Source: Vectrevirus LI10P3. Taken from it: 44,918 nt of DNA. The notes beneath the pieces were generated by a model. That model saw nothing but the letters and a program-made list of their open reading frames with translations. It had not been told where the DNA came from and ran no database searches. Positions 6,406 through 17,232 of this stretch are shown in pieces (position 1 is the stretch's first letter; each line of letters opens with the position of its first letter). The position numbers and the translations under genes were made by a program. Location of the stretch: the sequence record OZ035798.1; one strand, given 5' to 3'.

Positions 6406-8118
6406 ATGCTTCAAAGATTAAGTGCTTACTTGGTGAAGTACAAGAGTAAACTAACAGGTACTATTGAGCGCCTGCTATCTGATAAACTATCGGATACAAT
6501 AGATGTTGCGGATTTTGGAGTTACTCCATCTTCCAATGACAACAGGCAAGCACTTCAAGCTGCGTTCAATGCAGTCAGAGTGTTAGGCGGTGGCACTGTA
6601 TTAGTCACTAAAGCTGGAAAATACAAACTCAGTGGTACTGTTGAGATATTTGCTAATACACACTTCAAGGTTGCTAAAGGTGTAACATTTGTACGTGACT
6701 ACGAAACAGGAGATACGCTATTCAGATTATCACAAGGGCAAGCTAGTAATGTAACAGTCAGTGGAGGTATCTATGAAGGCAATGGTCACACTAAGGGAGA
6801 TACACCTTTTGTAGTATTTGCATCTACTAGTAATAATGATTTGAAGTTTGAAGGCATAACAGTTAACAATGTAGTGGACTACCACGCCATAGATTTAGCA
6901 GATTGGAACAACGTAGTTATTCGTGATTGTAAATTCCTAGGTTTTAAGAATACAGGCAGTCGTAACTTCTCAGAGGCTATACAGTTAGACCCAGGTCTTA
7001 TTACAGTTGGTCACTATGTACAGTCAAGTGGTATGCTGGTGGAGAATTGCTATGCTGGTCCAAACACAGAATCAGGGTTTGGAGGTTATGGTGCACTAAT
7101 TGGAAATCACGCCTCAGCTTACGGTGTACAGGACAACAATATCCGTATCTTGAATTGCACTACAGATGGTGCTCTCTTTGCAGGTGTACGTGTATTTAAC
7201 TGGAAAAACTGGACAGTGCGTGGTTGCACATTTAGGAACTCTAATGCAAGAGGTGTCCATGTTACACCTTTCTCATCTCAGACTAAACCGCAGGGTACTC
7301 GACAAGGTAGTATTGTAGATTGCACTTTTGATGGCGTAAGGACACCAGTGCTAATTGCTGCACCATCTTGGCCTTTTACCGATATTAGTGACATTTGGCA
7401 TGACCATATTGAAATTTCTAATAATACTATGATCCTCACAGAGGATGTATCCTATGGTGTAGATGCAAGGTGGTGTAAGAATTTAATTGTAAAAGGTAAT
7501 ACAGGCTCTGGTGGCTTAGGGTTAATAGGTTTACGCTTTGGGACAAAATACCACATCGAAGGTAATACTTGGGAAAACGGAAGAGGTAGTGGGATTTGGC
7601 TAGGTGAGTCTGATGCTACTACATTCATTGGTACTGGTTTATCAGGAGAAGGTATACTTAGTCGTAATATCTTCTCTAAATTAGGGCAATATGGTATTCA
7701 TGTAAACTGCAAGGCTAGCGGTCTAGTGATTAAAGCCAATAATATGAAGGAGGTATCTACAGATGAAGCAGGTAGGCACTTCATTAGTATAGACACAGGG
7801 GCTAACAACATCCTAGTAGAAGGTAATATTGGAGTAGATGGAGAAAGCCCTAACAAGCCAAGCCTTGGTATTCGTGTTACTTCTTCTTGTTCCAATATTA
7901 AACTCATTGGCAATGATTGCTATGGCACACAGGCGCCTCAGAATAACCAAGGAGTCGGTTCTAGTACGGTGATTGTTTATGGACTAAATGGCAACCCTAC
8001 AACTTTAGGCGTAGGTGCACCTGTAGGCTCTTTAGCAACTGATATCAATGGTTCTGGTGGTAGTACATTGTACGTTAAAGAATCTGGTACATCTGCTCAA
8101 GGTTGGGTTGCAAAGTAG
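6406..8118 (+). CDS. Tailspike 2: pectate-lyase-superfamily beta-helix depolymerase
   Basis: 570 aa; GAGGAGG RBS; N-terminal DVADFGVTPSSNDNRQALQAAFNA motif; repetitive Gly/Asn-rich beta-helix-like sequence. Confidence 0.8.
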   Translation: MLQRLSAYLVKYKSKLTGTIERLLSDKLSDTIDVADFGVTPSSNDNRQALQAAFNAVRVLGGGTVLVTKAGKYKLSGTVEIFANTHFKVAKGVTFVRDYETGDTLFRLSQGQASNVTVSGGIYEGNGHTKGDTPFVVFASTSNNDLKFEGITVNNVVDYHAIDLADWNNVVIRDCKFLGFKNTGSRNFSEAIQLDPGLITVGHYVQSSGMLVENCYAGPNTESGFGGYGALIGNHASAYGVQDNNIRILNCTTDGALFAGVRVFNWKNWTVRGCTFRNSNARGVHVTPFSSQTKPQGTRQGSIVDCTFDGVRTPVLIAAPSWPFTDISDIWHDHIEISNNTMILTEDVSYGVDARWCKNLIVKGNTGSGGLGLIGLRFGTKYHIEGNTWENGRGSGIWLGESDATTFIGTGLSGEGILSRNIFSKLGQYGIHVNCKASGLVIKANNMKEVSTDEAGRHFISIDTGANNILVEGNIGVDGESPNKPSLGIRVTSSCSNIKLIGNDCYGTQAPQNNQGVGSSTVIVYGLNGNPTTLGVGAPVGSLATDINGSGGSTLYVKESGTSAQGWVAK

Positions 8119-8129
8119 TAGGAAGTTGA

Positions 8130-8273
8130 ATGCCATTAATCAAATCAGTTAAGCAAAGTGCTGTACGCCAGAACACAGAAGAGCTTATTCAATCAGGACG
8201 TGACCCTAAGCAAGCTTATGCCATTGCCAAGGATGTTCAACGTCGTGCCTTGAAGAAACCTTCTGCATCTTAA
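8130..8273 (+). CDS. Small basic hypothetical protein (47 aa)
   Basis: AGGAAG RBS; compact ORF filling the gap before the HNH gene. Confidence 0.35.
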   Translation: MPLIKSVKQSAVRQNTEELIQSGRDPKQAYAIAKDVQRRALKKPSAS

Positions 8274-8284
8274 AGGAGATTGAT

Positions 8285-8659
8285 ATGGAAACGTGGGTAA
8301 CTGTCCCTGGCTACCCACGGTATCAAGTGTCTACTCATGGATGTGTCAAATCACTCATTGGTAATCACAAGATACTGAAGCCGGGCAAGTCAAAGAGTGG
8401 GTATTTGAACGTAGTTCTTAGTAATGAGGAAGGCAAGAAGACATTCCGTGTGCATCGCTTGGTTGCACTGTGTCATTTGCCTAATCCTCATAATCTTCCC
8501 TTAGTGAACCACAAGGATGAAGACAAGGCACATAATCATGTAGACAATTTAGAGTGGTGTACTGAAGAGTACAATCTCAAGTATTCACGTGACTACGATA
8601 GGTCTTCTCTTAGTGTAACCCAAGGACAGAAGAAGGTATGGCTTCCAGTAGACCTGTAA
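8285..8659 (+). CDS. HNH homing endonuclease (NUMOD4-like N-terminus)
   Basis: AAGGAG RBS; WVTVPGYPRYQVSTHGCV then VNHKDEDKAHNHVDNLEW; paralog of 331..774. Confidence 0.8.
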   Translation: METWVTVPGYPRYQVSTHGCVKSLIGNHKILKPGKSKSGYLNVVLSNEEGKKTFRVHRLVALCHLPNPHNLPLVNHKDEDKAHNHVDNLEWCTEEYNLKYSRDYDRSSLSVTQGQKKVWLPVDL

Positions 8660-8699
8660 CATTCAGGTAACAAAGTCAAAATTTTGATATAGGCGTGTG

Positions 8700-8860
8700 T
8701 CAGCTCTCTCGCCCTCGCCCTCGCCGGATTTCCCCCATATAGGGCCGCGCTGCGGTTGGCTTGGGAATTGGGCTGGGCTGGTCCGTCTTCAACCTGCTGC
8801 CGCAGGAAGCTCGACGGGTGGCCTAGGGCTTGCCGAGGTCTGCTCTTAGTGGCTGCACAA
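8700..8860 (+). other. GC-rich non-coding block, probable genome-terminus / terminal-repeat region
   Basis: Composition differs sharply from the rest of the window; no ORF on either strand; lies between the last late gene and the first early gene. Confidence 0.35.
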
Positions 8861-9039
8861 GGAGAACTCCTAGGAAGCGCTAGGGTACGCCTTAGTATTG
8901 GACAAGGTGATTGCCTTAGTTCAACCGCTTAGGGCTTACACGGGCCGTTTTAGGGCCATTCCTGAGCGTTTGACAGGGTGTGAGGGCGTGGACTATCTGT
9001 TCGTTTCGTTCACTCCGCTTGCGCTACGTTCACTCGCTC

Positions 9040-9180
9040 ACGTGTACCTTAGGTTATTCCTTGATGGATAGCTTAGGTTAGCCTTAGTGGATTACCTTAG
9101 TTAAAGCCTTAGTGCTTCACTTAGTATCCGCTTAGTAGTGTACCTTAGTAAGTCTTAGTGTCTTCTCTTAGTGATTGCAC
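9040..9180 (+). repeat. Array of short direct repeats, CTTAGT(G/A), at least 10 copies
   Basis: Irregularly spaced CCTTAGT/CTTAGTG copies; extra copies at 8845-8925 and 9316-9500; analogous to the heptamer arrays next to T7 terminal repeats. Confidence 0.6.
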
Positions 9181-9369
9181 ATGCAAGCATGTAAGATGCC
9201 ATTAGGTCGCGGTCGGTAGACCGCTAAAGAAGAAGTATAGTAATAAGATGCAGTAGGAGGAACACCAGAAACCTAGCCAACCTAGCCTATCCTAGCTCTG
9301 CATCTATTGCTTTTCCTTAGTCTCACATGTTAGACAACCTATCTTATTCTTAGTGATGATAACTTAGTG

Positions 9370-9398
9370 TTGACAAGATAATCTTAGTGTAATACTAT
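9370..9398 (+). promoter_or_regulatory. Candidate host sigma70 early promoter
   Basis: TTGACA, 17 nt spacer, TACTAT. Confidence 0.4.
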
Positions 9399-9470
9399 GC
9401 ATCACGTAGGCGGTGCTGAGGCACCTAGTAGCCAGCTAGTAAGGCATACGAAGAGACTAGCGCTTACATT

Positions 9471-9483
9471 GCTCTTTAACAAT
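9471..9483 (+). promoter_or_regulatory. boxA-like antitermination element, copy 1
   Basis: GCTCTTTAACAAT, identical to the rrn-type boxA core; ~66 nt downstream of the candidate promoter. Confidence 0.5.
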
Positions 9484-9541
9484 TTGCTTAGTGTAACCTA
9501 TGTATGCCGTGGTCAATTACTTATTGAATGAGGGATTAACT

Positions 9542-9721
9542 ATGACATTAAACAACCGTGAACTATCCGTTCTCTTCACTCTGTTGTGCTACATGATTCG
9601 TAAAAACGAATTGCTTACAGATGACGAGTTAGCCTTGTATCACCGCTTTCTTAACGAAGGTTGGACCGATACAGTTAATCAATACCGTAACATGATAGAT
9701 GAGTTGAGGGAGGGTAAATAA
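9542..9721 (+). CDS. Early hypothetical protein (59 aa)
   Basis: GAGGGA RBS; first ORF after the terminus region. Confidence 0.55.
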   Translation: MTLNNRELSVLFTLLCYMIRKNELLTDDELALYHRFLNEGWTDTVNQYRNMIDELREGK

Positions 9722-9945
9722 TGTATCAGCATGAGGTTTTCTTTGAGTCAGCTAGTGAAGCTATCCGCTTCCTTGAAGATATGCTACAAGCTGGCGTAGG
9801 TGTTGATGTACATCACTTCCTACTAGATTACGACACTGAATATCACCGAGTTACCTTAGTATCTGAGTATGACAACCAAGTCATTACTGAGTACCTAGGC
9901 AGTGAAGATTACGATTATGATGAAGTAATCACGACAAATCTCTAA
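9721..9945 (+). CDS. Early acidic hypothetical protein (74 aa)
   Basis: GAGGGAGGG RBS; very Asp/Glu/Tyr-rich C-terminal half. Confidence 0.6.
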   Translation: MYQHEVFFESASEAIRFLEDMLQAGVGVDVHHFLLDYDTEYHRVTLVSEYDNQVITEYLGSEDYDYDEVITTNL

Positions 9946-9953
9946 ATTAACTG

Positions 9954-9982
9954 TTGACAGCCACGGCATACAAGGCTACATT
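9954..9982 (+). promoter_or_regulatory. Candidate host sigma70 early promoter
   Basis: TTGACA, 17 nt spacer, TACATT. Confidence 0.45.
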
Positions 9983-10015
9983 AAGCATCAAGACGGCGAC
10001 GTCTTTAAACATCCC

Positions 10016-10028
10016 GCTCTTTAACAAT
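10016..10028 (+). promoter_or_regulatory. boxA-like antitermination element, copy 2
   Basis: cGCTCTTTAACAAT, ~27 nt downstream of the predicted start site of the promoter at 9954. Confidence 0.5.
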
Positions 10029-10227
10029 ACGGTTTGTGTCTTGATAGGCTAACTAACTAACTAAGGTAATTATCATGAAAGGTTTAATTTGTGTAGAACG
10101 TATGGTCAATGGTAAACTTGAAATATTACCACTGGAAAACCAATCTAGCTTCAAAGAGTGGTATGGCTGTTTCTCACTTATTTAAGGTAAAGGCTGGCAC
10201 TAGTCAGCCTATCAAGGCGCAAACCAA

Positions 10228-10240
10228 GCTCTTTAACAAT
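10228..10240 (+). promoter_or_regulatory. boxA-like antitermination element, copy 3
   Basis: GCTCTTTAACAAT, ~100 nt upstream of the ocr start codon. Confidence 0.5.
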
Positions 10241-10336
10241 TTGGATGGTAGCTTCTTAGTCTGGATAGGTTAAACCTAGGGGACTCTCTTGAGTCTCCTA
10301 TAATGTAACCTAACTAACTAAATGAGGATTAATAAC

Positions 10337-10690
10337 ATGGCTATGTCTAATATGACTTACTCTCAGGTTTACAACACCGCTCATGCTGCATTAGTTGAAC
10401 GTATCTGGAATGATGATATTGATTGTATCGATAACGCACATGATGCAATCCATGAGGTAGCGGACAGTGCTGTACCAATCTATTATGCTGACATCTTCTC
10501 AGTAATGGCGAGTGAGGGTATTGATCACTTCTTCGAAGACTCCGGCCTGATGCCAGATACTAAGGATGTAACGGTCGTACTACAAGCCCGTATTTATGAA
10601 CAACTCACCATTGATTTATGGGAACGTGTTCAAGATATGATTGTTGCGTACACCACTTACGCTGAGTATTCAGAAGAAGAGGAGGAATAA
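10337..10690 (+). CDS. ocr: Ocr (gp0.3-like) DNA-mimic anti-restriction protein
   Basis: MAMSNMTY...[19 protein letters not shown]...[13 protein letters not shown]...[15 protein letters not shown]...EEEEE closely matches recalled T7 Ocr; 117 aa, highly acidic. Confidence 0.85.
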
Positions 10691-10795
10691 GATGGAAAAG
10701 CTATACAACTTCATCTTTTCAGACGGTGTAACCCTGAAGTGTTCCCTGCGTTTCGCACAAATTCGTGAGGAAGTACTAGGCACTACATACAAACT

Positions 10796-10818
10796 ATTTA
10801 GCTGACACTATAAGAGAA
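10796..10818 (+). promoter_or_regulatory. Phage RNAP promoter variant
   Basis: ATTTAGCTGACACTATAAGAGAAGG. Confidence 0.5.
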
Positions 10819-10880
10819 GGCTTAACAAGGCGTTACTAAGGTAGCGCCTGATTAAACTTTCACTTACTAGGAGTAAGACT

Positions 10881-11108
10881 ATGGATTTAGATAGCATCAT
10901 TATGGCATTTGCTCTTATTGGCTTAAGCTGGTGCTCCTATCACCTTTACCGTGAGTTCTTATTTGATAAAGCTAAACGCAAACTAAGAAAGGAAGGCGGT
11001 AATTACCTTTGTGTAAGAGATGGGCTTGTAGAATACATTGCACCTAACGGCACGGAATGCGCCATTAGCAAAGATGCATTTATAGAAACGTGGCATTACA
11101 TCAAGTAA
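10881..11108 (+). CDS. Early small membrane protein (75 aa)
   Basis: AGGAG RBS; N-terminal hydrophobic segment IIMAFALIGLSWCSY. Confidence 0.55.
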   Translation: MDLDSIIMAFALIGLSWCSYHLYREFLFDKAKRKLRKEGGNYLCVRDGLVEYIAPNGTECAISKDAFIETWHYIK

Positions 11109-11171
11109 CTAGCCTATAGCCTACCTGAGTGGGCTATGTGATATTTACTTACACTATATAAGGTGACTATT

Positions 11172-12095
11172 ATGACTACTGAAAACACCCTCCTGTCTGT
11201 TCGTGAAGCTGCAACCGCTGAGATCAAGCAACACTTAGACAATATCGGCACTTCTTACATCAAAGTTGGCGCTTGTCTTAATGAGTTACGCGGTGACTTT
11301 GAAGGTCAAAAAGACTTTTTGGCTTATGTAGAATCAGAATTTGGAATCAAGAAAGCACAATGCTACAAGCTGATGAGTGTAGCCCGTGTCTTTGAAGGAG
11401 ACGAACGCTTTAAAGGTGTGGCTATGCGTGTAATGCTGGCGCTTGTTCCTTTCGCTGATGAAAATATAATCATGGAGAAGGCCGCAGAACTCGCCGCAGA
11501 GGGCAAGCTGGACACTAACGCCGTAAACGCCCTGATTGATCCTAAGAAAGAGACAAAGGCCGAGACGGTACAATCTAAGGTTGAGTCGGTAAAACCGCAG
11601 GAGAACGCGACTGAGGCCGCAGAAACTATGCAAGGACATGCAACCTTTGAGGATTTCATCTTAGAGAAGGCGAAAGAGGATTTACAAAGTGTGCCGCCAG
11701 TAAGTGAGTCGGGTAACGACGAATCCGCACCGTGGGAAGATGAAAGCAAGCCGGAAGACACAAAGGCAGCGCCACGGGATAACACGGCTAATACTGAGAA
11801 TGCCGCTATTGCTGGTCTGCTGGCACAAATTAAAGCACTGACTGAGCAATTACAGGCAGCTAATGACCGCATTGCCTCCTTAAGCAGCGCACGCGAAAGC
11901 AAGAAAGCAGCCGCGCCTATGCTGCCGCAATTCAAATCTTCCTGCTTCTATGCTCGCTTAGGTTTAAGCGCTGAGGAGGCAACGAAGAAAACAGCAGTTA
12001 ACAAGGCACGCCGCGAACTGGTTAAGCTAGGCTACGGCGAAGGCCATGAAGCATGGCCCTTAATCTCTGAGGCAGTAGAAGAATTAACTAAGTAA
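11172..12095 (+). CDS. Early hypothetical protein with predicted N-terminal helical domain and Ala/Glu/Lys-rich C-terminal region
   Basis: 307 aa from ATG 11172; low-complexity charged middle and C-terminal heptad-like region; occupies the slot of T7 gene 0.7 but shows no kinase motifs. Confidence 0.6.
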   Translation: MTTENTLLSVREAATAEIKQHLDNIGTSYIKVGACLNELRGDFEGQKDFLAYVESEFGIKKAQCYKLMSVARVFEGDERFKGVAMRVMLALVPFADENIIMEKAAELAAEGKLDTNAVNALIDPKKETKAETVQSKVESVKPQENATEAAETMQGHATFEDFILEKAKEDLQSVPPVSESGNDESAPWEDESKPEDTKAAPRDNTANTENAAIAGLLAQIKALTEQLQAANDRIASLSSARESKKAAAPMLPQFKSSCFYARLGLSAEEATKKTAVNKARRELVKLGYGEGHEAWPLISEAVEELTK

Positions 12096-12158
12096 CCCTA
12101 TCGGTGGCATCTTATTAGGTGTCACCTATTAAGGTTTCTTTCACTAGGAGTAAACAAG

Positions 12159-14786
12159 ATGCAAGACCTACACGCTATTCAACTTCAACTTGAAGAAGAA
12201 ATGTTTAACGGCGGTATCCGTCGCTTTGAAGCGGACCAACAACGCCAGATTGCATCCGGTAATGAATCAGACACGGCATGGAATCGCCGCTTATTGTCCG
12301 AGTTAATCGCGCCAATGGCTGAAGGTATTCAGGCTTATAAGGAAGAGTACGAAGGCAAGCGCGGTCGTGCACCACGTGCATTGGCTTTCATTAACTGCGT
12401 AGAAAATGAAGTGGCAGCGTATATCACGATGAAGATCGTAATGGATATGCTTAACACTGATGTAACCTTGCAAGCTATCGCTATGAATGTAGCTGACCGC
12501 ATTGAGGACCAAGTGCGCTTCAGTAAACTAGAAGGCCATGCAGCTAAATATTTTGAGAAGGTCAAGAAGTCACTTAAGGCAAGTAAGACTAAATCATATC
12601 GCCATGCGCACAACGTAGCGGTCGTGGCTGAGAAGTCAGTAGCTGACCGTGACGCTGATTTCTCTCGCTGGGAAGCGTGGCCTAAAGATACCTTGCTACA
12701 AATTGGGATGACCTTGCTTGAAATCTTAGAGAATAGCGTATTCTTCAACGGGCAACCTGTCTTCCTCCGCACCTTGCGCACTAATGGCGGCAAACATGGT
12801 GTTTACTACCTACAGACTAGCGAACACGTGGGTGAATGGATAACTGCATTTAAAGAGCACGTAGCTCAGCTGAGTCCAGCCTATGCGCCTTGCGTGATTC
12901 CTCCTCGTCCGTGGGTGTCACCTTTTAATGGCGGTTTTCACACTGAGAAGGTGGCAAGCCGTATTCGTCTGGTTAAAGGTAACCGCGAGCACGTCCGCAA
13001 GCTGACCAAAAAGCAAATGCCAGCGGTTTACAAGGCTGTTAACGCCTTACAAGCTACTAAGTGGCAGGTTAACAAGGAAGTATTGCAGGTAGTAGAAGAT
13101 GTTATTCGTCTAGACCTCGGTTATGGTGTACCTTCCTTTAAGCCGCTCATTGACCGCGAGAACAAACCAGCTAACCCTGTTCCTCTTGAGTTCCAGCACC
13201 TGCGAGGCCGTGAATTGAAAGAGATGCTAACACCGGAGCAATGGCAGGCCTTCATCAACTGGAAGGGTGAATGTACTAAGCTGTATACCGCTGAGACTAA
13301 GCGCGGCAGCAAGTCGGCGGCGACCGTCCGCATGGTAGGACAGGCCCGTAAATACAGCCAGTTTGACGCTATTTATTTTGTATATGCACTGGACAGCCGT
13401 TCACGCGTTTATGCGCAATCTAGCACGCTCTCGCCGCAATCAAACGACTTAGGCAAGGCATTGCTCCGTTTTACCGAAGGGCAGCGTCTTGATAGCGCTG
13501 AGGCGCTTAAGTGGTTTTTGGTGAACGGGGCGAATAACTGGGGTTGGGATAAGAAAACTTTTGACGTGCGCACCTCTAACGTGCTGGATGGCGAATTTCA
13601 AGACATGTGCCGCGACATTGCAGCCGATCCGCTGACCTTCACTCAATGGGTAAATGCCGACTCCCCTTACGGCTTCCTTGCATGGTGCTTTGAATATGCG
13701 CGTTATCTGGATGCACTGGATGAAGGCACGCAAGACCAATTCATGACGCATCTACCCGTCCATCAAGACGGTAGTTGCTCTGGTATCCAGCACTATAGCG
13801 CGATGTTACGCGATGAAGTAGGTGCGAAAGCAGTAAACCTTAAGCCCTCTGACTCTCCTCAAGATATTTATGGTGCCGTTGCGCAGGTAGTAATTCAGAA
13901 GAACTATGCATACATGAATGCAGAGGATGCGGAAACCTTCACTTCTGGCAGCGTGACTTTAACAGGTGCGGAGCTGCGTAGTATGGCTAGTGCGTGGGAT
14001 ATGATAGGAATCACTCGCGGCCTGACCAAAAAGCCCGTAATGACACTACCTTATGGCAGCACACGTCTAACCTGCCGTGAGTCAGTGATTGATTATATCG
14101 TTGATTTAGAAGAAAAAGAGGCCCAACGGGCTATTGCGGAAGGGCGTACCGCCAATCCTGTACACCCTTTTGATAATGACCGTAAGGACAGCCTGACACC
14201 TAGCGCAGCTTATAACTATATGACAGCTTTAATCTGGCCTTCTATTTCGGAAGTGGTTAAAGCTCCTATAGTGGCAATGAAAATGATTCGTCAGCTTGCA
14301 CGTTTCGCAGCTAAAAGGAATGAAGGCTTAGAGTACACCTTGCCTACTGGCTTCATCTTGCAACAAAAGATAATGGCGACAGATATGCTCCGCGTATCTA
14401 CTTGCTTGATGGGAGAAATCAAGATGAGTCTACAGATTGAAACGGACGTAGTGGATGAAACGGCTATGATGGGCGCTGCTGCCCCTAACTTTGTGCACGG
14501 TCATGATGCCAGTCACCTTATCTTAACGGTCTGCGACCTTGTTGATAAAGGGATTACATCTATCGCAGTAATTCATGATTCTTTTGGCACTCATGCAGGT
14601 CGCACCGCAGACCTACGTGATAGTCTAAGGGCAGAAATGGTGAAGATGTATCAAGGCCGTAACGCTCTGCAAAGCCTGTTAGATGAGCATGAAGAACGCT
14701 GGTTAGTAGACACCGGAATCCAAGTGCCAGAGCAAGGAGAGTTTGACCTTAACGAAATCTTAGTATCTGACTATTGCTTCGCATAA
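12159..14786 (+). CDS. Single-subunit DNA-dependent RNA polymerase (T7/SP6 gene 1-like)
   Basis: 875 aa; [52 protein letters not shown] and HDSFGTHAG motifs; C-terminal ...CFA. Confidence 0.95.
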
Positions 14787-14794
14787 TATTAATA

Positions 14795-14824
14795 GGCCAT
14801 TCCTTCGGGAGTGGCCTTTCTTTT
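14795..14824 (+). terminator. Stem-loop with UUCG tetraloop and T-run after the RNAP gene
   Basis: GGCCATTCC-ttcg-GGAGTGGCC then TTTCTTTT; could alternatively be an RNase III-type site. Confidence 0.5.
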
Positions 14825-14858
14825 ACCTACTACCGGTAACATTTCATTAACATAAAGT

Positions 14859-14874
14859 GTCTCACATGTGAGAC
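14859..14874 (+). repeat. Conserved palindrome GTCTCACATGTGAGAC, copy 1
   Basis: Perfect 16 bp palindrome abutting the promoter at 14877. Confidence 0.7.
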
Positions 14875-14876
14875 TT

Positions 14877-14899
14877 ATTTACCGGACACTATAGGATAG
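14877..14899 (+). promoter_or_regulatory. Phage RNAP promoter variant (ori-associated A)
   Basis: ATTTACCGGACACTATAGGATAG. Confidence 0.6.
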
Positions 14900-14947
14900 C
14901 CGTCGGAGACGGGAAAGAAAGGGGAAGATAAAGGATATAAAAAGGAA

Positions 14948-14994
14948 GTAATAGGTATTAAAGGCTATATAGGTTATCTAGGAATACCTATTAC
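14948..14994 (+). promoter_or_regulatory. Large hairpin
   Basis: GTAATAGGTATT ... AATACCTATTAC, perfect 12 bp stem with 23 nt loop. Confidence 0.45.
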
Positions 14995-15000
14995 CTTCTT

Positions 15001-15029
15001 CCTTCCTCTTATTACTACTTAGAGGAAGG
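15001..15029 (+). promoter_or_regulatory. Hairpin
   Basis: CCTTCCTCT-tattactactt-AGAGGAAGG, perfect 9 bp stem. Confidence 0.4.
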
Positions 15030-15042
15030 GCAGATCTAGGTT

Positions 15043-15058
15043 GTCTCACATGTGAGAC
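15043..15058 (+). repeat. Conserved palindrome GTCTCACATGTGAGAC, copy 2
   Basis: Perfect 16 bp palindrome a few nt upstream of the promoter at 15064. Confidence 0.7.
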
Positions 15059-15063
15059 TTCGT

Positions 15064-15086
15064 ATTTACCGGACAGTATAGATAAG
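15064..15086 (+). promoter_or_regulatory. Phage RNAP promoter variant (ori-associated B)
   Basis: ATTTACCGGACAGTATAGATAAG. Confidence 0.5.
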
Positions 15087-15111
15087 ACTAACTTACTTTG
15101 GAGATTTAACC

Positions 15112-15240
15112 ATGCGTAACTTTGAGAAGATGACCCGTAAAGCTAACCGTTTTGACATGGAAGAAGGGCAGAAGAAAGGCAAGAAGCTGAATAAACCTGT
15201 CCGTGACCGTGCATCTAAACGCGCTGCGTGGGAGTTCTAA
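15112..15240 (+). CDS. gp1.1-like small basic protein (42 aa)
   Basis: MRNFEKMTRKANR...KLNKPVRDRASKR matches recalled T7 gp1.1; GGAG RBS; below the 60 aa cut-off of the ORF track. Confidence 0.6.
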   Translation: MRNFEKMTRKANRFDMEEGQKKGKKLNKPVRDRASKRAAWEF

Positions 15241-15243
15241 GTT

Positions 15244-17232
15244 ATGGCTATTATTCAGAATGTACCGTGTCCTGCCTGTCAAAAGAATGGACATGATATT
15301 ACTGGCAACCATCTTATGATATTTGAGGATGGCGCTGGTTACTGTAACCGTGGTCACTTCCATGATAATGGGAAGCCTTATTACCATAAGCCAGAGGGTG
15401 GCATCGAGATAACCGAGTTACCTATTACTGGCAATATCAAATATACACCTTCTCAATTCAAAGAAATGGAGAAGGAAGGGAAGATAAGCGACCCTAAGCT
15501 ACGCGCCATCGCTCTTGGTGGTATGCGTATGAAAGACCGTTGGGAGGTCATGAATGAGCAAGAAAGGGCAGACCAAGAAGCAGAGTGGAAACTTGATGTT
15601 GAATGGTTCCTCACGCTTAAGCGTAAGAACCTTGTATCCCGTCACATTCGAGGTGACATCGCAGCAATGTACGATGTGCGCGTTGGACACGATGAAGAGG
15701 GAAGAGTCAACCGTCACTATTATCCACGATATGAAAAGGGTGTGCTTGTTGGGGCAAAATGCCGGACGTTGCCGAAGGATTTTAAGTTCGGACACCTAGG
15801 TAAACTCTTTGGTATGCAAGATCTTTTCGGTATGAACACTTTGTCTCACGTGTTAGACAAGGGAAGACGAAAGGATTGCTTGCTTATTGTAGGCGGTGAA
15901 CTTGATGCACTAGCAGCGCAGCAGATGCTCCTTGATTCTGCCAAGGGTACTAAGTGGGAAGGCCAGCCATACCATGTATGGTCTGTCAACAAAGGCGAGT
16001 CTTGTCTTGAAGAGATAGTGCAAAACCGTGAGCATATCGCCCAATTCAAGAAGATTATATGGGGTTTTGATGGAGATGAGGTAGGGCAGAAGCAGAATCA
16101 GCAAGCGGCTCGCCTGTTTCCTGGCAAATCCTATATCCTTGAATACCCCTCTGGTTGCAAAGATGCTAACAAGGCATTGATGGCTGGCAAGGCCAAAGAG
16201 TTTGTTGATGCATGGTTTAATGCCAAGTCATCTGATGAAGTCTTTGGTAGCCAGATTAAATCTATCGCCTCTCAAAGGGATAAGCTCAAGGCTGCACGTC
16301 CAGAGCAAGGACTATCATGGCCTTGGCCTAAGCTGAACAAGGTAACGCTAGGTATTCGTAAGAACCAACTTATCATTGTAGGCGCAGGCTCTGGTGTAGG
16401 TAAGACTGAGTTCCTTCGTGAAGTAGTTAAGCACCTCATTGAAGAACACGGTGAATCTGTAGGCATCATTTCTACAGAAGACCCGATGGTCAAGGTGTCC
16501 CGTGCTTTTATCGGCAAGTGGATTGATAAGCGTATTGAGTTACCGCCAACCAACGACCCTAAAGAAGACGGATACCGTGAGGTGTTCGACTACACCGAGG
16601 AAGAAGCTAACGCCGCCATTGATTATGTAGCTGATACAGGTAAGCTGTTTGTAGCTGACCTAGAGGGTGACTATTCGATGGAAAAGGTAGAGCAAACTTG
16701 CCTAGAGTTTGAGGCTATGGGTATTTCTAATATCATCATTGATAACTTAACGGGGATTAAATTAGATGAGCGTGCTTTTGGTGGGAAGGTTGGTGCACTT
16801 GATGAATGCGTCAAGCGGATTGGTACTATCAAAGACCGACACCCGGTTACTATATTCCTTGTATCACACCTTACACGTCCTCCGGCAAACCGTACCCAAC
16901 ACGAAGAAGGTGGCGAAGTTATCCTTTCTGACTTCCGAGGCTCAGGAGCTATCGGATTCTGGGCATCTTACGCCTTGGGGATTGAGCGTAACACAAGAGC
17001 TGAAACGCTTGATGAAAGAACTACCACGTACATCTCATGTGTCAAAGACCGCGACCAAGGTATCTGGACTGGAACCAAGGTCATGCTTAAGGGTGACATT
17101 CAAACCGGACGTTTAATGGAACCACAAGCCCGTACTAAGTCATTTGATACAGGTGAAGCAAGGCAACAAGAAGTACCAGATTTACCGGACACTATAGAAG
17201 AGACTAACTTCGATGAAGAAAGTGAGTTCTGA
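15244..17232 (+). CDS. DNA primase/helicase (gp4-like)
   Basis: N-terminal zinc-binding CPACQ...CNRGH; Walker A GAGSGVGKT; acidic C-terminus FDEESEF. Confidence 0.9.
   Translation: MAIIQNVPCPACQKNGHDITGNHLMIFEDGAGYCNRGHFHDNGKPYYHKPEGGIEITELPITGNIKYTPSQFKEMEKEGKISDPKLRAIALGGMRMKDRWEVMNEQERADQEAEWKLDVEWFLTLKRKNLVSRHIRGDIAAMYDVRVGHDEEGRVNRHYYPRYEKGVLVGAKCRTLPKDFKFGHLGKLFGMQDLFGMNTLSHVLDKGRRKDCLLIVGGELDALAAQQMLLDSAKGTKWEGQPYHVWSVNKGESCLEEIVQNREHIAQFKKIIWGFDGDEVGQKQNQQAARLFPGKSYILEYPSGCKDANKALMAGKAKEFVDAWFNAKSSDEVFGSQIKSIASQRDKLKAARPEQGLSWPWPKLNKVTLGIRKNQLIIVGAGSGVGKTEFLREVVKHLIEEHGESVGIISTEDPMVKVSRAFIGKWIDKRIELPPTNDPKEDGYREVFDYTEEEANAAIDYVADTGKLFVADLEGDYSMEKVEQTCLEFEAMGISNIIIDNLTGIKLDERAFGGKVGALDECVKRIGTIKDRHPVTIFLVSHLTRPPANRTQHEEGGEVILSDFRGSGAIGFWASYALGIERNTRAETLDERTTTYISCVKDRDQGIWTGTKVMLKGDIQTGRLMEPQARTKSFDTGEARQQEVPDLPDTIEETNFDEESEF
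17180..17202 (+). promoter_or_regulatory. Phage RNAP promoter inside the helicase 3' end
   Basis: ATTTACCGGACACTATAGAAGAG. Confidence 0.6.

Follow-up and report, generated by a model that had tools for sequence, protein, structure and literature searches.

Three rrn-type boxA elements adjoin conserved RNA helices in the early leader of Vectrevirus LI10P3, a candidate rrn-like cassette architecture

The window analyzed here is the whole 44,918-nucleotide stretch of sequence record OZ035798.1, a circularly permuted Vectrevirus genome (K1E/K1-5/SP6-like) named LI10P3. Its early leader contains two predicted sigma70 promoters, three boxA elements, two long-range stems that enclose small open reading frames (ORFs), and local hairpins, one of which precedes ocr (Table 1). 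According to the ORF coordinates, ~45% of the first 930 nt of the leader is untranslated. Gene 1 bears the same annotation in K1-5 and SP6, and the 36-aa ORF enclosed by stem B has no family match; in relatives, stem B encloses non-homologous ORFs of 37 to 95 aa. A comparison of the early ORFs with Pfam gave no family match besides ocr, the identity of which, proposed in a first-pass annotation made from the sequence, was borne out by this match. In an Rfam scan of positions 8600 to 15200, the sole match was to a meaningless miRNA (E=0.43).

Table 1. Positions of the early-leader features of LI10P3, numbered from the first nucleotide of the window
Feature	Coordinates	Strand	Remarks
Predicted sigma70 promoter P1, TTGACA-17-TACTAT	9370..9398	+	consensus score 10/12; kept in relatives
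boxA1 (tGCTCTTTAACAATttg)	9471..9483	+	16 nt common to E. coli rrn leader boxA region
Stem A, 5' strand	9486..9513	+	begins 3 nt after the boxA1 12-mer
Gene 1	9542..9721	+	59 aa, phrog_9275; cargo of stem A
Gene 2	9721..9945	+	74 aa, phrog_6403; cargo of stem A
Predicted sigma70 promoter P2, TTGACA-17-TACATT	9954..9982	+	consensus score 10/12; kept in relatives
Stem A, 3' strand	9960..9986	+	3' of the gene 2 stop; 29 nt separate its end from boxA2
Hairpin AAGACG-GCGA-CGTCTT	9990..10005	+	read from sequence; present in the fold
boxA2	10016..10028	+	exact 13-mer
Stem B, 5' strand	10031..10055 (core 10031-10050)	+	begins 3 nt after the boxA2 12-mer
36-aa ORF	10075..10185	+	cargo of stem B
Stem B, 3' strand	10201..10225 (core 10206-10225)	+	ends 2 nt before boxA3
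boxA3	10228..10240	+	exact 13-mer; 109 nt 5' of ocr start; copy common to T7-like phages
Hairpin C, local, irregular	10252..10327	+	between boxA3 and the ocr ribosome-binding site; fold z=-4.4
ocr (DNA-mimic anti-restriction protein)	10337..10690	+	Pfam PF08684, E=3.4e-43
First phage-RNAP promoter	10798..10819	+	bounds the host-RNAP-only RNA on its 3' side

The first-pass annotation had reported three perfect copies of the 13-mer GCTCTTTAACAAT, confined to the early region. A count on both strands of the window agreed with this report, since the plus strand carries the three copies and neither strand holds a further match. No copy occurred in 100 dinucleotide-preserving shuffles, compared with three in the real sequence, and a chance origin of the three boxAs was rejected on these figures. 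When the boxA 12-mer was relaxed to ≤2 mismatches, six extra sites appeared, including a 1-mismatch boxA-like site at 8027 within the tailspike ORF; the 9 sites found versus 5.2 expected put this relaxed search at chance level. The proposed identity with the leader boxA of the E. coli rRNA (rrn) operons holds in real genomes: the rrn leader sequence that starts with TGCTCTTTAACAATTTATCAG was found upstream of 16S in 5426 of 5426 genomes, and it is also present in locus L176. All three phage copies fit the rrn sequence GCUCUUUAACAA as well as GYTCTTTAANA, the functional gamma-proteobacterial boxA consensus (PMC5725501).

P1 and P2, the two promoters that the first-pass annotation had named, turned out to be the two best sigma70-type matches within positions 8000 to 16000; the total of promoter-like matches in this interval is not above that of shuffles. 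Their score and their conservation in relatives support them as predicted promoters. An equivalent of P1 is present at the matching place in K1-5 and most Vectrevirus loci. The spacer and -10 element of P2 double as the 3' strand of stem A, and a promoter is likewise placed within a helix arm in SP6, Klebsiella phage K13PH07C1L, and Pseudomonas phage Njord. The proposed spacings were confirmed: relative to the predicted starts, boxA1 is at about +66 and boxA2 at about +27. From boxA3 to the ocr ATG (10337) the distance is 109 nt, for which ~100 nt had been given. All boxAs are on the sense strand, 3' of the two best predicted sigma70 matches and 5' of the first phage promoter (10799), so they fall within RNA made only by host RNAP. 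Since T7 RNAP does not use Nus factors (PMC5725501), the confinement of the boxAs to this RNA fits the model that we develop below.

As an early feature of LI10P3, boxA is real but not special to this phage, as T7 has the same 13-mer at positions 813 to 825. One exact boxA lies ahead of the first early gene in T7, T3, phiYeO3-12, KP32, and a Pseudomonas T7-like phage, and SP6-like phages have two to four copies. Both the position and the sequence of boxA are conserved across T7-like and SP6-like phages, whereas the 5' flanks are not. Across 59 distinct boxA contexts from these phages, the 5' flank is almost without information, and positions 13, 15, and 16, which lay outside the boxA search pattern, are conserved at 95 to 97% (GCTCTTTAACAATyTG). 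boxA1 shows no variation among its 17 distinct orthologous or paralogous copies (alignment A2). A boxA is found 100 to 115 nt 5' of ocr in 25 of the 30 loci anchored on ocr, and in a 26th the distance is 192 nt. The one-mismatch variants all differ (10 of 10) at position 2 or 10, which are the degenerate positions of GYTCTTTAANA. Two copies with a C2A change are an exception to the consensus, as A does not fit Y at position 2. This variant, GATCTTTAACAA, occurs outside the published consensus at the ocr-proximal site of SP6 and one T7-like phage, showing that the ocr-proximal copy is not under absolute constraint. Vibrio phage ICP3 has no boxA within one mismatch, and the element is therefore not universal in the family. 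By this comparison, boxA is under purifying selection relative to its flanks, and, the two C2A copies excepted, its substitution pattern is compatible with Nus binding. The diversity sampled came from a tblastn search of a phage collection; an RNAP-anchored search of IMG/VR yielded no new lineages.

The GenBank records of T7, T3, phiYeO3-12, SP6, and K1-5 carry no boxA annotation, and among these five only those of T3 and phiYeO3-12 have RNase III sites annotated. In open-access full text, we found no paper linking boxA with T7-, SP6-, or K1-5-type phages. The T7 boxA is mentioned in older T7 literature, with no function assigned to it.

The first-pass annotation had treated the boxAs as isolated antiterminators. 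Their consensus, sense orientation, and conservation stand, but their isolation does not, as each one adjoins a conserved RNA helix and two of these helices enclose ORFs. Stem A (27 to 28 bp) and stem B (20 to 25 bp; an inverted repeat of 25 nt, 88% complementary) are the two inverted repeats that stand out in this region. Their arms lie outside ORFs, in untranslated RNA, and both stems are present in the MFE and the centroid fold (z=-5.1). The length required of an rrn-type helix is >17 to 20 bp (PMC10250234), and both stems consist of complementary strands above this length that flank cargo. Duplex energies range from -37 to -52 kcal/mol versus -16 to -24 kcal/mol for shuffles in 12 of the 12 loci tested. 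In the rest of the early region (10300 to 15300), we found no long-range helix comparable to stems A and B.

Covariation supports both helices. In stem A, 98.7% of the cells are paired, with double changes in 5 pairs and only 26 to 34% pairing in slid controls; in stem B, which was compared across 10 sequences including those of Klebsiella and Edwardsiella phages, 98.5% are paired and 7 of 20 pairs show double changes. The slid controls of the two stems taken together gave 25 to 46% pairing. Among the non-Watson-Crick cells of both stems, the ratio of G.U to A.C is 47:4, which assigns the structure to the plus strand RNA.

Stem A might also be a feature of the DNA, either an inverted duplicate of P2 (a leftward promoter like A0 of T7) or a cruciform, given that the reverse complement of its 5' strand resembles the spacer and -10 element of P2 and that TTGACC stands at the right distance in LI10P3. 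However, the would-be -35 element reads TTAACC or CTAACC in most relatives, whereas the true P2 -35 is near-invariant (alignment A2; of 17 sequences, 16 read TTGACA and that of SP6 reads TTGACT). Moreover, the 5' strands of stem B and of the stems in distant phages contain no promoter, and the non-Watson-Crick cells of stem A alone show 27 G.U to 4 A.C. In view of the nonconserved -35 element and the G.U bias, we rejected this reading, for which the probability is close to nil.

The association of boxA with a helix is kept across subfamilies. In all phage instances, the 5' strand of the long-range helix begins at +2 or +3 nt after the boxA 12-mer, and the 3' strand ends about 0 to 29 nt before the next boxA. 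The same architecture recurs with unrelated arm sequences in Klebsiella phage K13PH07C1L (4 boxAs), Edwardsiella phage DT115P1 (2 boxAs), and Pseudomonas phage Njord (3 boxAs and a 34-nt stem with a dG of -54). The lineage has kept boxA and the adjacent long-range helix while swapping helix sequences and cargo, and this retention of the layout despite replaced arms and cargo is an independent line of evidence, from evolution, that the juxtaposition as such has a function.

Such swapping could mean that the boxAs are recombination linkers without RNA function, placed at the boundaries where early-gene cassettes are exchanged between phages. The order of the modules indeed varies, with stem A before stem B in LI10P3 and K1-5 and stem B before stem A in SP6 and L166, and the cargo of stem B is non-homologous between phages. 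Nevertheless, a linker has no need for identity with the host rrn boxA, for variation limited to positions tolerated by Nus, or for strand specificity, and the compensatory changes and G.U bias found in the arms are the mark of selection acting on the RNA. We consider a pure linker function very improbable, and the exchange of cassettes is more readily understood as a result of having repeated modules than as the purpose of these modules.

Local hairpins accompany boxA2 and boxA3. P2 transcripts are predicted to begin with the first of these, which lies 10 nt upstream of boxA2, where rrn leaders have boxB; in SP6, a different hairpin immediately precedes the first boxA. At its base, hairpin C pairs with a portion of the Shine-Dalgarno sequence of ocr, and the hairpin sits at the position of the RNase III site R0.3 of T7 and T3, a site annotated ~30 nt after an exact boxA in the T3 and phiYeO3-12 records. 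Comparable hairpins form in SP6 and L170, and the L166 version is weaker and non-significant (z=-1.0). The upper stem of hairpin C covaries. The RNAalifold consensus for this hairpin is poor because MAFFT misaligns the divergent versions, so that the evidence for it consists of single-sequence folds and of the upper-stem covariation. The toxicity of a T7 promoter fragment (PMC11863960) is uninformative on boxA; in that study, a stabilizing 45-bp T7 deletion removes the region of the 0.3 ribosome-binding site, and the author blames a gp0.3 fragment.

Another reading is that Nus factors bound at the boxAs repress translation of the downstream ORFs, as at suhB, where boxA mediates translational repression (PMC5725501). 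A related idea is that the boxAs form a sink that titrates NusB/NusE/SuhB off the host rrn operons and thereby contributes to host shut-off, for which the strong (predicted) promoters and the several boxAs per transcript would be suited. RNAalifold pairs the CUCUU of boxA with the ocr Shine-Dalgarno region, but this pairing is invariant and thus uninformative. The distances to start codons are 47 to 97 nt, mostly beyond the ≤50 nt of the suhB-type survey; a sink requires neither a fixed place beside helices nor a fixed distance to ocr, and T7-like phages carry one copy only. A sink or repressor function therefore seems improbable to us.

We propose that the early leader is built of iterated cassettes that mimic rrn operons, in which the Nus complex would serve antitermination, co-transcriptional folding, and RNase III processing, a reading to which we give a probability of about 0.5. 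The first ~0.95 kb of early RNA (about 9405 to 10340) would comprise three rrn-type modules, each with a boxA as a putative NusB/NusE site and, immediately 3' of it, the 5' strand of a helix. The helix of modules 1 and 2 would be long-range and close around small ORFs, its 3' strand being located just past the cargo stop codon and just before the next boxA, and in module 3 a local hairpin would precede ocr, like in T7 and T3. Host RNAP starting from P1 or P2 would transcribe boxA and become faster and Rho-resistant across the partly untranslated leader. boxA tethered at the RNA exit channel would hold the adjacent 5' strand until the 3' strand emerges, so that the long-range helix would form co-transcriptionally. 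RNase III would then cut the helix, like the rrn leader-trailer helices and R0.3 of T7 and T3, which would release cargo mRNAs with paired ends and sever the used boxA. Finally, the next boxA, 2 to 29 nt downstream, would reload the complex.

The rrn counterpart of this scheme is the looping model of Wahl for the rrnTAC, a complex of NusA/B/E/G, SuhB, and S4, in which boxC lies inside the 5' strand of the helix (PMC10250234). With the complete rrnTAC, RNase III cleaves the long-range helix co-transcriptionally ~5-fold more, and transcription runs twice as fast (bioRxiv 10.64898/2026.03.17.712431). By analogy, the boxA-helix layout of the phage points to a role of the Nus complex in RNA looping and processing at least as much as in antitermination.

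In a pure antitermination model, which follows the first-pass annotation, the Nus complex would confer speed and resistance to Rho on host RNAP as it transcribes the incoming genome. boxA would then be an antitermination or speed element only, and the helices would be independent RNase III or stability elements that are adjacent by chance in a compact leader. The evidence from boxA copies, consensus, and conservation applies equally to this explanation, and a leader that is ~45% untranslated over its first 930 nt is the kind of RNA on which Rho acts. In addition, an rrnTAC can form with boxA alone (PMC10250234), boxA elements protect other untranslated RNAs, among them CRISPR arrays (PMC7665894), and T7-like phages have boxA without a long-range helix. 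Antitermination alone nevertheless leaves unexplained why the 5' strand follows boxA by 2 to 3 nt throughout, even when the arms are unrelated, why a new boxA comes about 0 to 29 nt after each 3' strand, and why the same juxtaposition exists in rrn operons. We regard this explanation as possible, though rather unlikely.

The rrn-mimicking cassettes face difficulties of their own. T7 plates normally on classical nus mutants, which counts against the cassette model, and we know of no precedent for leader-trailer helices around mRNAs. Translation of the enclosed ORFs is a further difficulty, since a stable Nus complex might be disturbed by ribosomes or by NusG-S10 coupling. Part of the reason why boxA and helix lie so close together could be the compaction of a small genome. 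That T7-like phages manage with one boxA, their four further RNase III sites having none, shows that reloading is not needed in general. Mutation of the rrn boxA decreases 30S function only 2- to 3-fold (PMC10250234), and the phenotype of a phage boxA mutation may accordingly be small.

We tentatively extend the cassette model, with somewhat less than even confidence, to the early operons of SP6-like and related autographiviruses infecting Escherichia, Salmonella, Klebsiella, Edwardsiella, and Pseudomonas. These operons may be chains of portable "mini-rrn" cassettes with the order boxA, 5' strand, variable small ORFs, 3' strand (sometimes with a sigma70 promoter), and next boxA, in which the RNA looping of the rrnTAC would be co-opted for mRNA folding and RNase III processing. 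Classically, the rrn-type boxA and the Nus complex have been associated with rRNA, and only lately with a few other RNAs; whether this complex is mainly an antiterminator or an RNA-looping chaperone for RNase III helices is only now being settled, in vitro. If the cassette model is true, it would be the first case of the rrnTAC looping machinery acting on mRNAs and would provide a natural system, amenable to genetics, in which to examine the looping model, the cassettes being short (0.2 to 0.8 kb), non-essential, and thus suited to in vivo tests. It would also explain the long-unexplained T7 boxA, since the model proposes a role for the unannotated boxA of the T7 group. The layout suggests that small early genes, possibly including anti-defence candidates, are slotted into a ready-made frame for expression and processing. 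Its recognition would improve the annotation of the largely unannotated early leaders of therapeutic-candidate phages.

Among known systems, lambdoid nut sites resemble the LI10P3 leader in that a phage early transcript carries an rrn-like boxA for Nus loading (predicted in LI10P3). An IMG/VR scan retrieved a lambdoid-type contig (L077) in which a cI-like repressor gene has this 13-mer on its downstream side. We rejected the possibility that the LI10P3 elements are lambdoid nut sites, as a Pfam search of the early ORFs revealed no N-family protein. A conserved 15-nt boxB hairpin is absent 3' of boxA, where a strand of the long helix is found instead. With no N-like protein and no conserved 3' boxB, the system would need host factors only, like rrn. 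In the PeSL cassettes of T4-type phages, variable small early ORFs are bordered by repeated motifs made of an early promoter and a stem-loop, and modules are reshuffled among related phages, as are the LI10P3 cassettes; the PeSL differ by the absence of boxA, by their local stem-loops, and by their proposed role in recombination rather than in RNA processing. A non-rrn boxA also recruits Nus factors to the leader in the suhB 5'UTR (PMC5725501) and in CRISPR-array leaders (PMC7665894). Those boxAs are single and without a long-range helix, unlike the phage elements, and suhB is repressed, not protected.

In the T7/T3 group, a single boxA precedes gene 0.3, with promoter A3 on its 5' side and the RNase III site R0.3 on its 3' side. 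This group shares with LI10P3 the 13-mer with its continuation AATCTGG, a distance of ~110 nt to ocr, and the succession of boxA and a structured RNase III-type hairpin. Judged from sequence, boxA3 with hairpin C is the direct counterpart of boxA with R0.3 in T7 and T3. The T7-like phages differ by having one boxA and local hairpins only, compared to three boxAs and two ORF-enclosing long-range helices in LI10P3.

The E. coli rrn operons depart from the phage leaders in several respects. The phage cargo consists of translated small ORFs (0.14 to 0.75 kb) and not of rRNA; 280 nt with tRNAs separate the 3' strand from the next boxA in rrn, versus about 0 to 29 nt in phages; the 3' strand of a phage helix is, in one case, also a sigma70 promoter; and the phage contains no exact boxC, only a GTGT motif 8 to 9 nt after boxA. 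In other respects, the phage layout matches the real rrn layout. The boxA 12-mer is identical, with 16 nt in common in the case of boxA1, and the 5' strand of a long-range helix comes right after boxA, at +2 or +3 in phages and at +1 in rrn, where we computed this position both for the 16S leader-trailer helix after the leader boxA and for the 23S helix after the spacer boxA. The helices are of 20 to 34 bp in phages and 25 to 40 bp in rrn, a second boxA is located past the first helix, some boxAs have a hairpin on their 5' side, and transcription is by host RNAP from strong promoters, which are predicted in the phage.

Three exact copies of the rrn-type boxA 13-mer GCTCTTTAACAAT are present in the window, all on the plus strand, and none occurred in 100 shuffles. 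The first-pass annotation had placed them in the early region only, and indeed no further exact copy was found in the window on either strand, while boxA-like sites with up to two mismatches occur elsewhere at chance frequency. Their identity with the host element held as well: the E. coli leader sequence beginning TGCTCTTTAACAATTTATCAG lies upstream of 16S in 5426 of 5426 complete E. coli genomes, and boxA1 has 16 consecutive bases in common with the rrn leader. The two sigma70 promoters named with them, P1 and P2, are the top-scoring matches of the region and recur in relatives, and they stand as predicted starts. The boxA observation is sound and goes well beyond what chance would yield. 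A one-mismatch sequence, GCTCTTTAGCAA, lies within a beta-helix tailspike ORF; this is most likely a chance match, since the mismatch (A9G) hits a base that never varies in boxA and the sequence belongs to the late region transcribed by the phage RNAP.

Features of the early leader and its surroundings in the window
Feature	Position	Description
Tailspike ORF	6406-8118	beta-helix
boxA-like GCTCTTTAGCAA	8027-8038	one mismatch
124-aa ORF	8285-8659	NUMOD4 motif (Pfam E=1e-9)
Non-coding left end	8900-9370	short direct repeats
P1	9370-9398	predicted sigma70 promoter
boxA1	9471	exact
Stem A	9486-9513 with 9960-9986	starts 3 nt past the boxA1 12-mer; encloses genes 1 and 2
P2	9954-9982	predicted sigma70 promoter
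boxA2	10016	exact
Stem B	10031-10050(55) with 10206(01)-10225	starts 3 nt past boxA2; 36-aa ORF inside
CTAACTAACTAA	10049-10066 and 10310-10327	ahead of the Shine-Dalgarno sequences of the stem B ORF and ocr, respectively
boxA3	10228	exact
boxA3 UCUUU with ocr Shine-Dalgarno GAGGA	10230-10234 with 10324-10328	RNAalifold pairing
Hairpin C	10252-10327	76 nt, irregular, 3' of boxA3; z=-4.4
ocr	10337-10690	Pfam PF08684, E=3e-43
First phage-type promoter	10799	
Single-subunit RNAP gene	12159-14786	
Terminator-like hairpin	14794-14817	strong, directly 3' of RNAP gene
Origin-like region	14794-15090	
Palindromes GTCTCACATGTGAGAC	14859 and 15043	perfect, 16 bp
Phage-type promoters	14880 and about 15064	one after each palindrome
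Purine-rich stretch and 18-nt inverted repeat	14942-15000	between the palindromes

The 2.2 kb around the boxA sites are 91-97% identical to genomes of Vectrevirus, the K1E/K1-5 group of SP6-like Autographiviridae. The window is circularly permuted: since the K1-5 record starts at the genome end and has its first boxA at 710, the physical left end of the genome lies near 8760. Together with the positions of ocr, the RNAP gene and the first phage-type promoter, this places the boxA sites within the first entering kilobase, in RNA made by host RNAP alone. The non-coding left end is dense in short direct repeats of several families built on CCTTAGT(G), resembling the arrays at the left end of T7; the motif recurs inside the P1 spacer and the stem A 5' strand. 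Just ahead of the physical genome end, the 124-aa NUMOD4 ORF has an HNH-like H-N-H signature by eye and probably encodes a homing endonuclease. The hairpin, palindromes and promoters downstream of the RNAP gene resemble the T7 primary replication origin, with its tandem phi1.1A/B promoters and AT-rich region.

Each boxA of the window is the 5' neighbor of an RNA helix, a point missed by the first-pass annotation. No inverted repeats in the region are stronger than the two that form the long-range stems A and B, and these flank the boxAs; the 3' strand of stem A coincides with the spacer and -10 of P2, and stem B ends 2 nt short of boxA3. The local hairpin C takes part of the ocr Shine-Dalgarno sequence into its base and sits where T7 and T3 have R0.3. 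Folding the entire leader gave both stems in the minimum free energy structure as well as in the centroid (z=-5.1), and the SP6 leader fold contains both long-range stems, too. All 12 SP6-like loci of the first comparison showed pairing between the 50 nt past a boxA and the 75 nt leading up to the following one, the boxA-to-boxA duplexes reaching -37 to -52 kcal/mol versus -16 to -24 (standard deviation, about 3.5) for shuffles. A search for long-range pairing found no comparable helix further downstream in the early region.

The sequence CTAACTAACTAA, conserved in SP6 and two other compared loci (L166 and L170), forms the 3' strand of hairpin C, where its partner is CTTAGTCTGGATAGGTTA. It also looks akin to the stem B 5' strand (GTGTCTTGATAGGCTAACTAACTAA), a likeness suggesting that a local hairpin can turn into a long-range stem, or the reverse, through gain or loss of a loop ORF. 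RNAalifold also paired boxA3 with the ocr Shine-Dalgarno sequence in 17 of 17 sequences, without covariation for or against because both sides are invariant; this pairing could reflect a suhB-like interplay or be meaningless.

Covariation shows that selection acts on stems A and B as RNA. Among 17 distinct stem A sequences (28 pairs), standard pairs occupied 98.7% of cells and both sides had changed at 5 pairs; 0 of 500 shuffles attained any of five measures, and slid controls were 26-34% paired with 0-1 double changes. Stem B, compared in 10 sequences including the Klebsiella and Edwardsiella phages, was 98.5% paired with double changes in 7 of 20 pairs (18 cells), and its slid controls were 25-46% paired with 0-3 double changes. 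Non-Watson-Crick cells comprised 47 G.U versus 4 A.C, so the structure is that of the sense RNA, not of DNA or an antisense transcript. That stem A is instead an inverted promoter acting as DNA is scarcely credible, as it is contradicted by this G.U bias and by a non-conserved -35.

Comparison of genomes indicates that boxA is a conserved trait of T7 supergroup phages. T7 carries the identical 13-mer at 813-825, between promoter A3 and gene 0.3, and T3 and phiYeO3-12, whose gene 0.3 is unrelated (SAM hydrolase), nonetheless keep an exact boxA about 30 nt ahead of the record-annotated RNase III site R0.3. Of 30 ocr-anchored IMG/VR loci, 26 carry a boxA no more than 300 nt ahead of the ocr start (20 exact, 4 GTTC..., 2 GATC...), at 100-115 nt in 25 of them. 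KP32 and Pseudomonas putida phage Bosely have a single boxA, before the first gene, and SP6-like phages have 2-4 copies. The older T7 literature already notes this boxA but gives it no function. GenBank records of T7, T3, phiYeO3-12, SP6 and K1-5 lack a boxA annotation, and our literature search found no open-access paper on boxA in these phages. As a candidate reading, the earlier proposal of Nus loading agrees with all the tests that sequence can offer; for the T7 group it is no novelty.

Across 59 distinct sequence contexts, the 5' flank of boxA is near information-free and conservation sets in abruptly at G1; positions 13, 15 and 16, which lay outside the search pattern, are 95-97% conserved, yielding GCTCTTTAACAATyTG. 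One-mismatch variants affect position 2 (8 copies) or 10 (2 copies) and no other, coinciding with both degenerate positions of GYTCTTTAANA, the functional consensus of gamma-proteobacteria (PMC5725501). Two C2A copies fall outside this consensus: the ocr-proximal boxA reads GATCTTTAACAAT in SP6 (L032, 1536-1548) and in one T7-like phage (L018), a change of independent origin in the two lineages. Either A is tolerated at position 2 or the copy is decaying. An IMG/VR scan yielded at least 120 viral contigs with GCTCTTTAACAATNTG (L034-L153); among those listed, a T7-type RNAP was nearby in only 15 and none adjoined a 16S or 23S gene, and GACGCTT[ACT]GCTCTTTAACAATCTGG was common to many. In contig L077 (9600-10013), boxA is preceded by a cI-like (S24-type) repressor gene and followed by a 73-aa ORF, an arrangement that looks like lambdoid nutL. 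Judging from these contigs, temperate phages would also seem to carry rrn-type boxA widely.

The boxA-helix architecture predates its sequences. Klebsiella phage vB_Kpn_K13PH07C1L, whose RNAP is 69% identical, has an exact boxA four times; a helix follows three of them, and gaps of 1 and 16 nt separate the 3' strands of helices 1 and 2 from the boxA that comes after. In Edwardsiella phage DT115P1 (46%), the 3' strand of the helix after boxA abuts a second boxA. Pseudomonas phage Njord (Colwellvirinae, 42%) has three boxAs and two helices with arms unrelated in sequence to those of the window; the gaps from their 3' strands to the following boxA are 5 and 20 nt, and in one helix (34 nt, dG -54 kcal/mol) the 3' strand again coincides with a TTGACA promoter, in its spacer and -10. 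T7-like phages have one boxA only, with local structure. The modules, each a boxA plus its adjoining helix, act like cassettes: stem B precedes stem A in SP6 and L166 and follows it in the window and K1-5, stem B carries non-homologous ORFs of 36-95 aa that differ among phages, and stem A always carries gp1 and gp2, with at most two further ORFs. Such shuffling is real, but that the boxAs are recombination linkers only is very unlikely: the motif is strand-specific and matches that of the host exactly, and the arms covary as RNA.

What the analysis shows is the anatomy of the leader, the covariation of its helices as RNA and the parallel with rrn; factor binding, antitermination, looping, cleavage and reloading are inferred, and we regard this mechanism as the most likely, with a probability of about 0.5. 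Host RNAP starting at P1 or P2 would pick up the Nus/SuhB complex at boxA, giving faster, Rho-protected transcription of a leader that is roughly 45% untranslated; in T7-type phages, transcription also pulls the genome into the cell. The tethered boxA would keep the adjoining 5' strand at the exit channel, so that the long-range helix closes once its 3' strand is made. RNase III would then cut the helix, freeing cargo mRNAs with paired ends and detaching the used boxA, and the complex would load anew at the next. The last module, boxA3 with hairpin C, would correspond to the T7-type R0.3 arrangement and might unmask the ocr ribosome-binding site. It is possible, if doubtful, that boxA serves antitermination only and the helices are independent of it, which accounts for boxA but leaves the invariant adjacency unexplained. 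A role of boxA as a Nus-factor sink or in suhB-like translational repression is unlikely. Against the loading-and-cleavage mechanism stand the two C2A copies at the ocr-proximal site, the translation of the helix cargo, the further RNase III sites of T7 that lack a boxA, and the modest phenotype of rrn boxA mutants (PMC10250234). What is new here is the iteration of rrn-mimicking boxA-plus-helix cassettes, kept across subfamilies despite turnover of sequence and cargo; we found this architecture neither described in open-access papers nor annotated in the records examined.

In the E. coli rrn operon (L176), the 16S leader-trailer helix (dG -57.7 kcal/mol) has a 5' strand that begins at +1 from the leader boxA (GCTCTTTAACAA), and the 23S helix (-50.3 kcal/mol) has one that begins at +1 from the spacer boxA (beginning GCTCTTTAAAAATCTGGAT). 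NusB-held boxA at the RNA exit channel has been proposed to keep the strand until the trailer emerges (PMC10250234). In a 2026 single-molecule study, the complete rrnTAC, the host complex of NusA/B/E/G, SuhB and S4, doubled transcription speed, suppressed Rho termination and made RNase III cut the long-range helix about 5-fold more during transcription, and cleavage of full-length pre-17S RNA was almost abolished without the complete complex (bioRxiv 10.64898/2026.03.17.712431). The phage leaders have the same layout, boxA and then the 5' strand of a helix, and their continuation AATyTGG resembles the spacer version of the rrn boxA.
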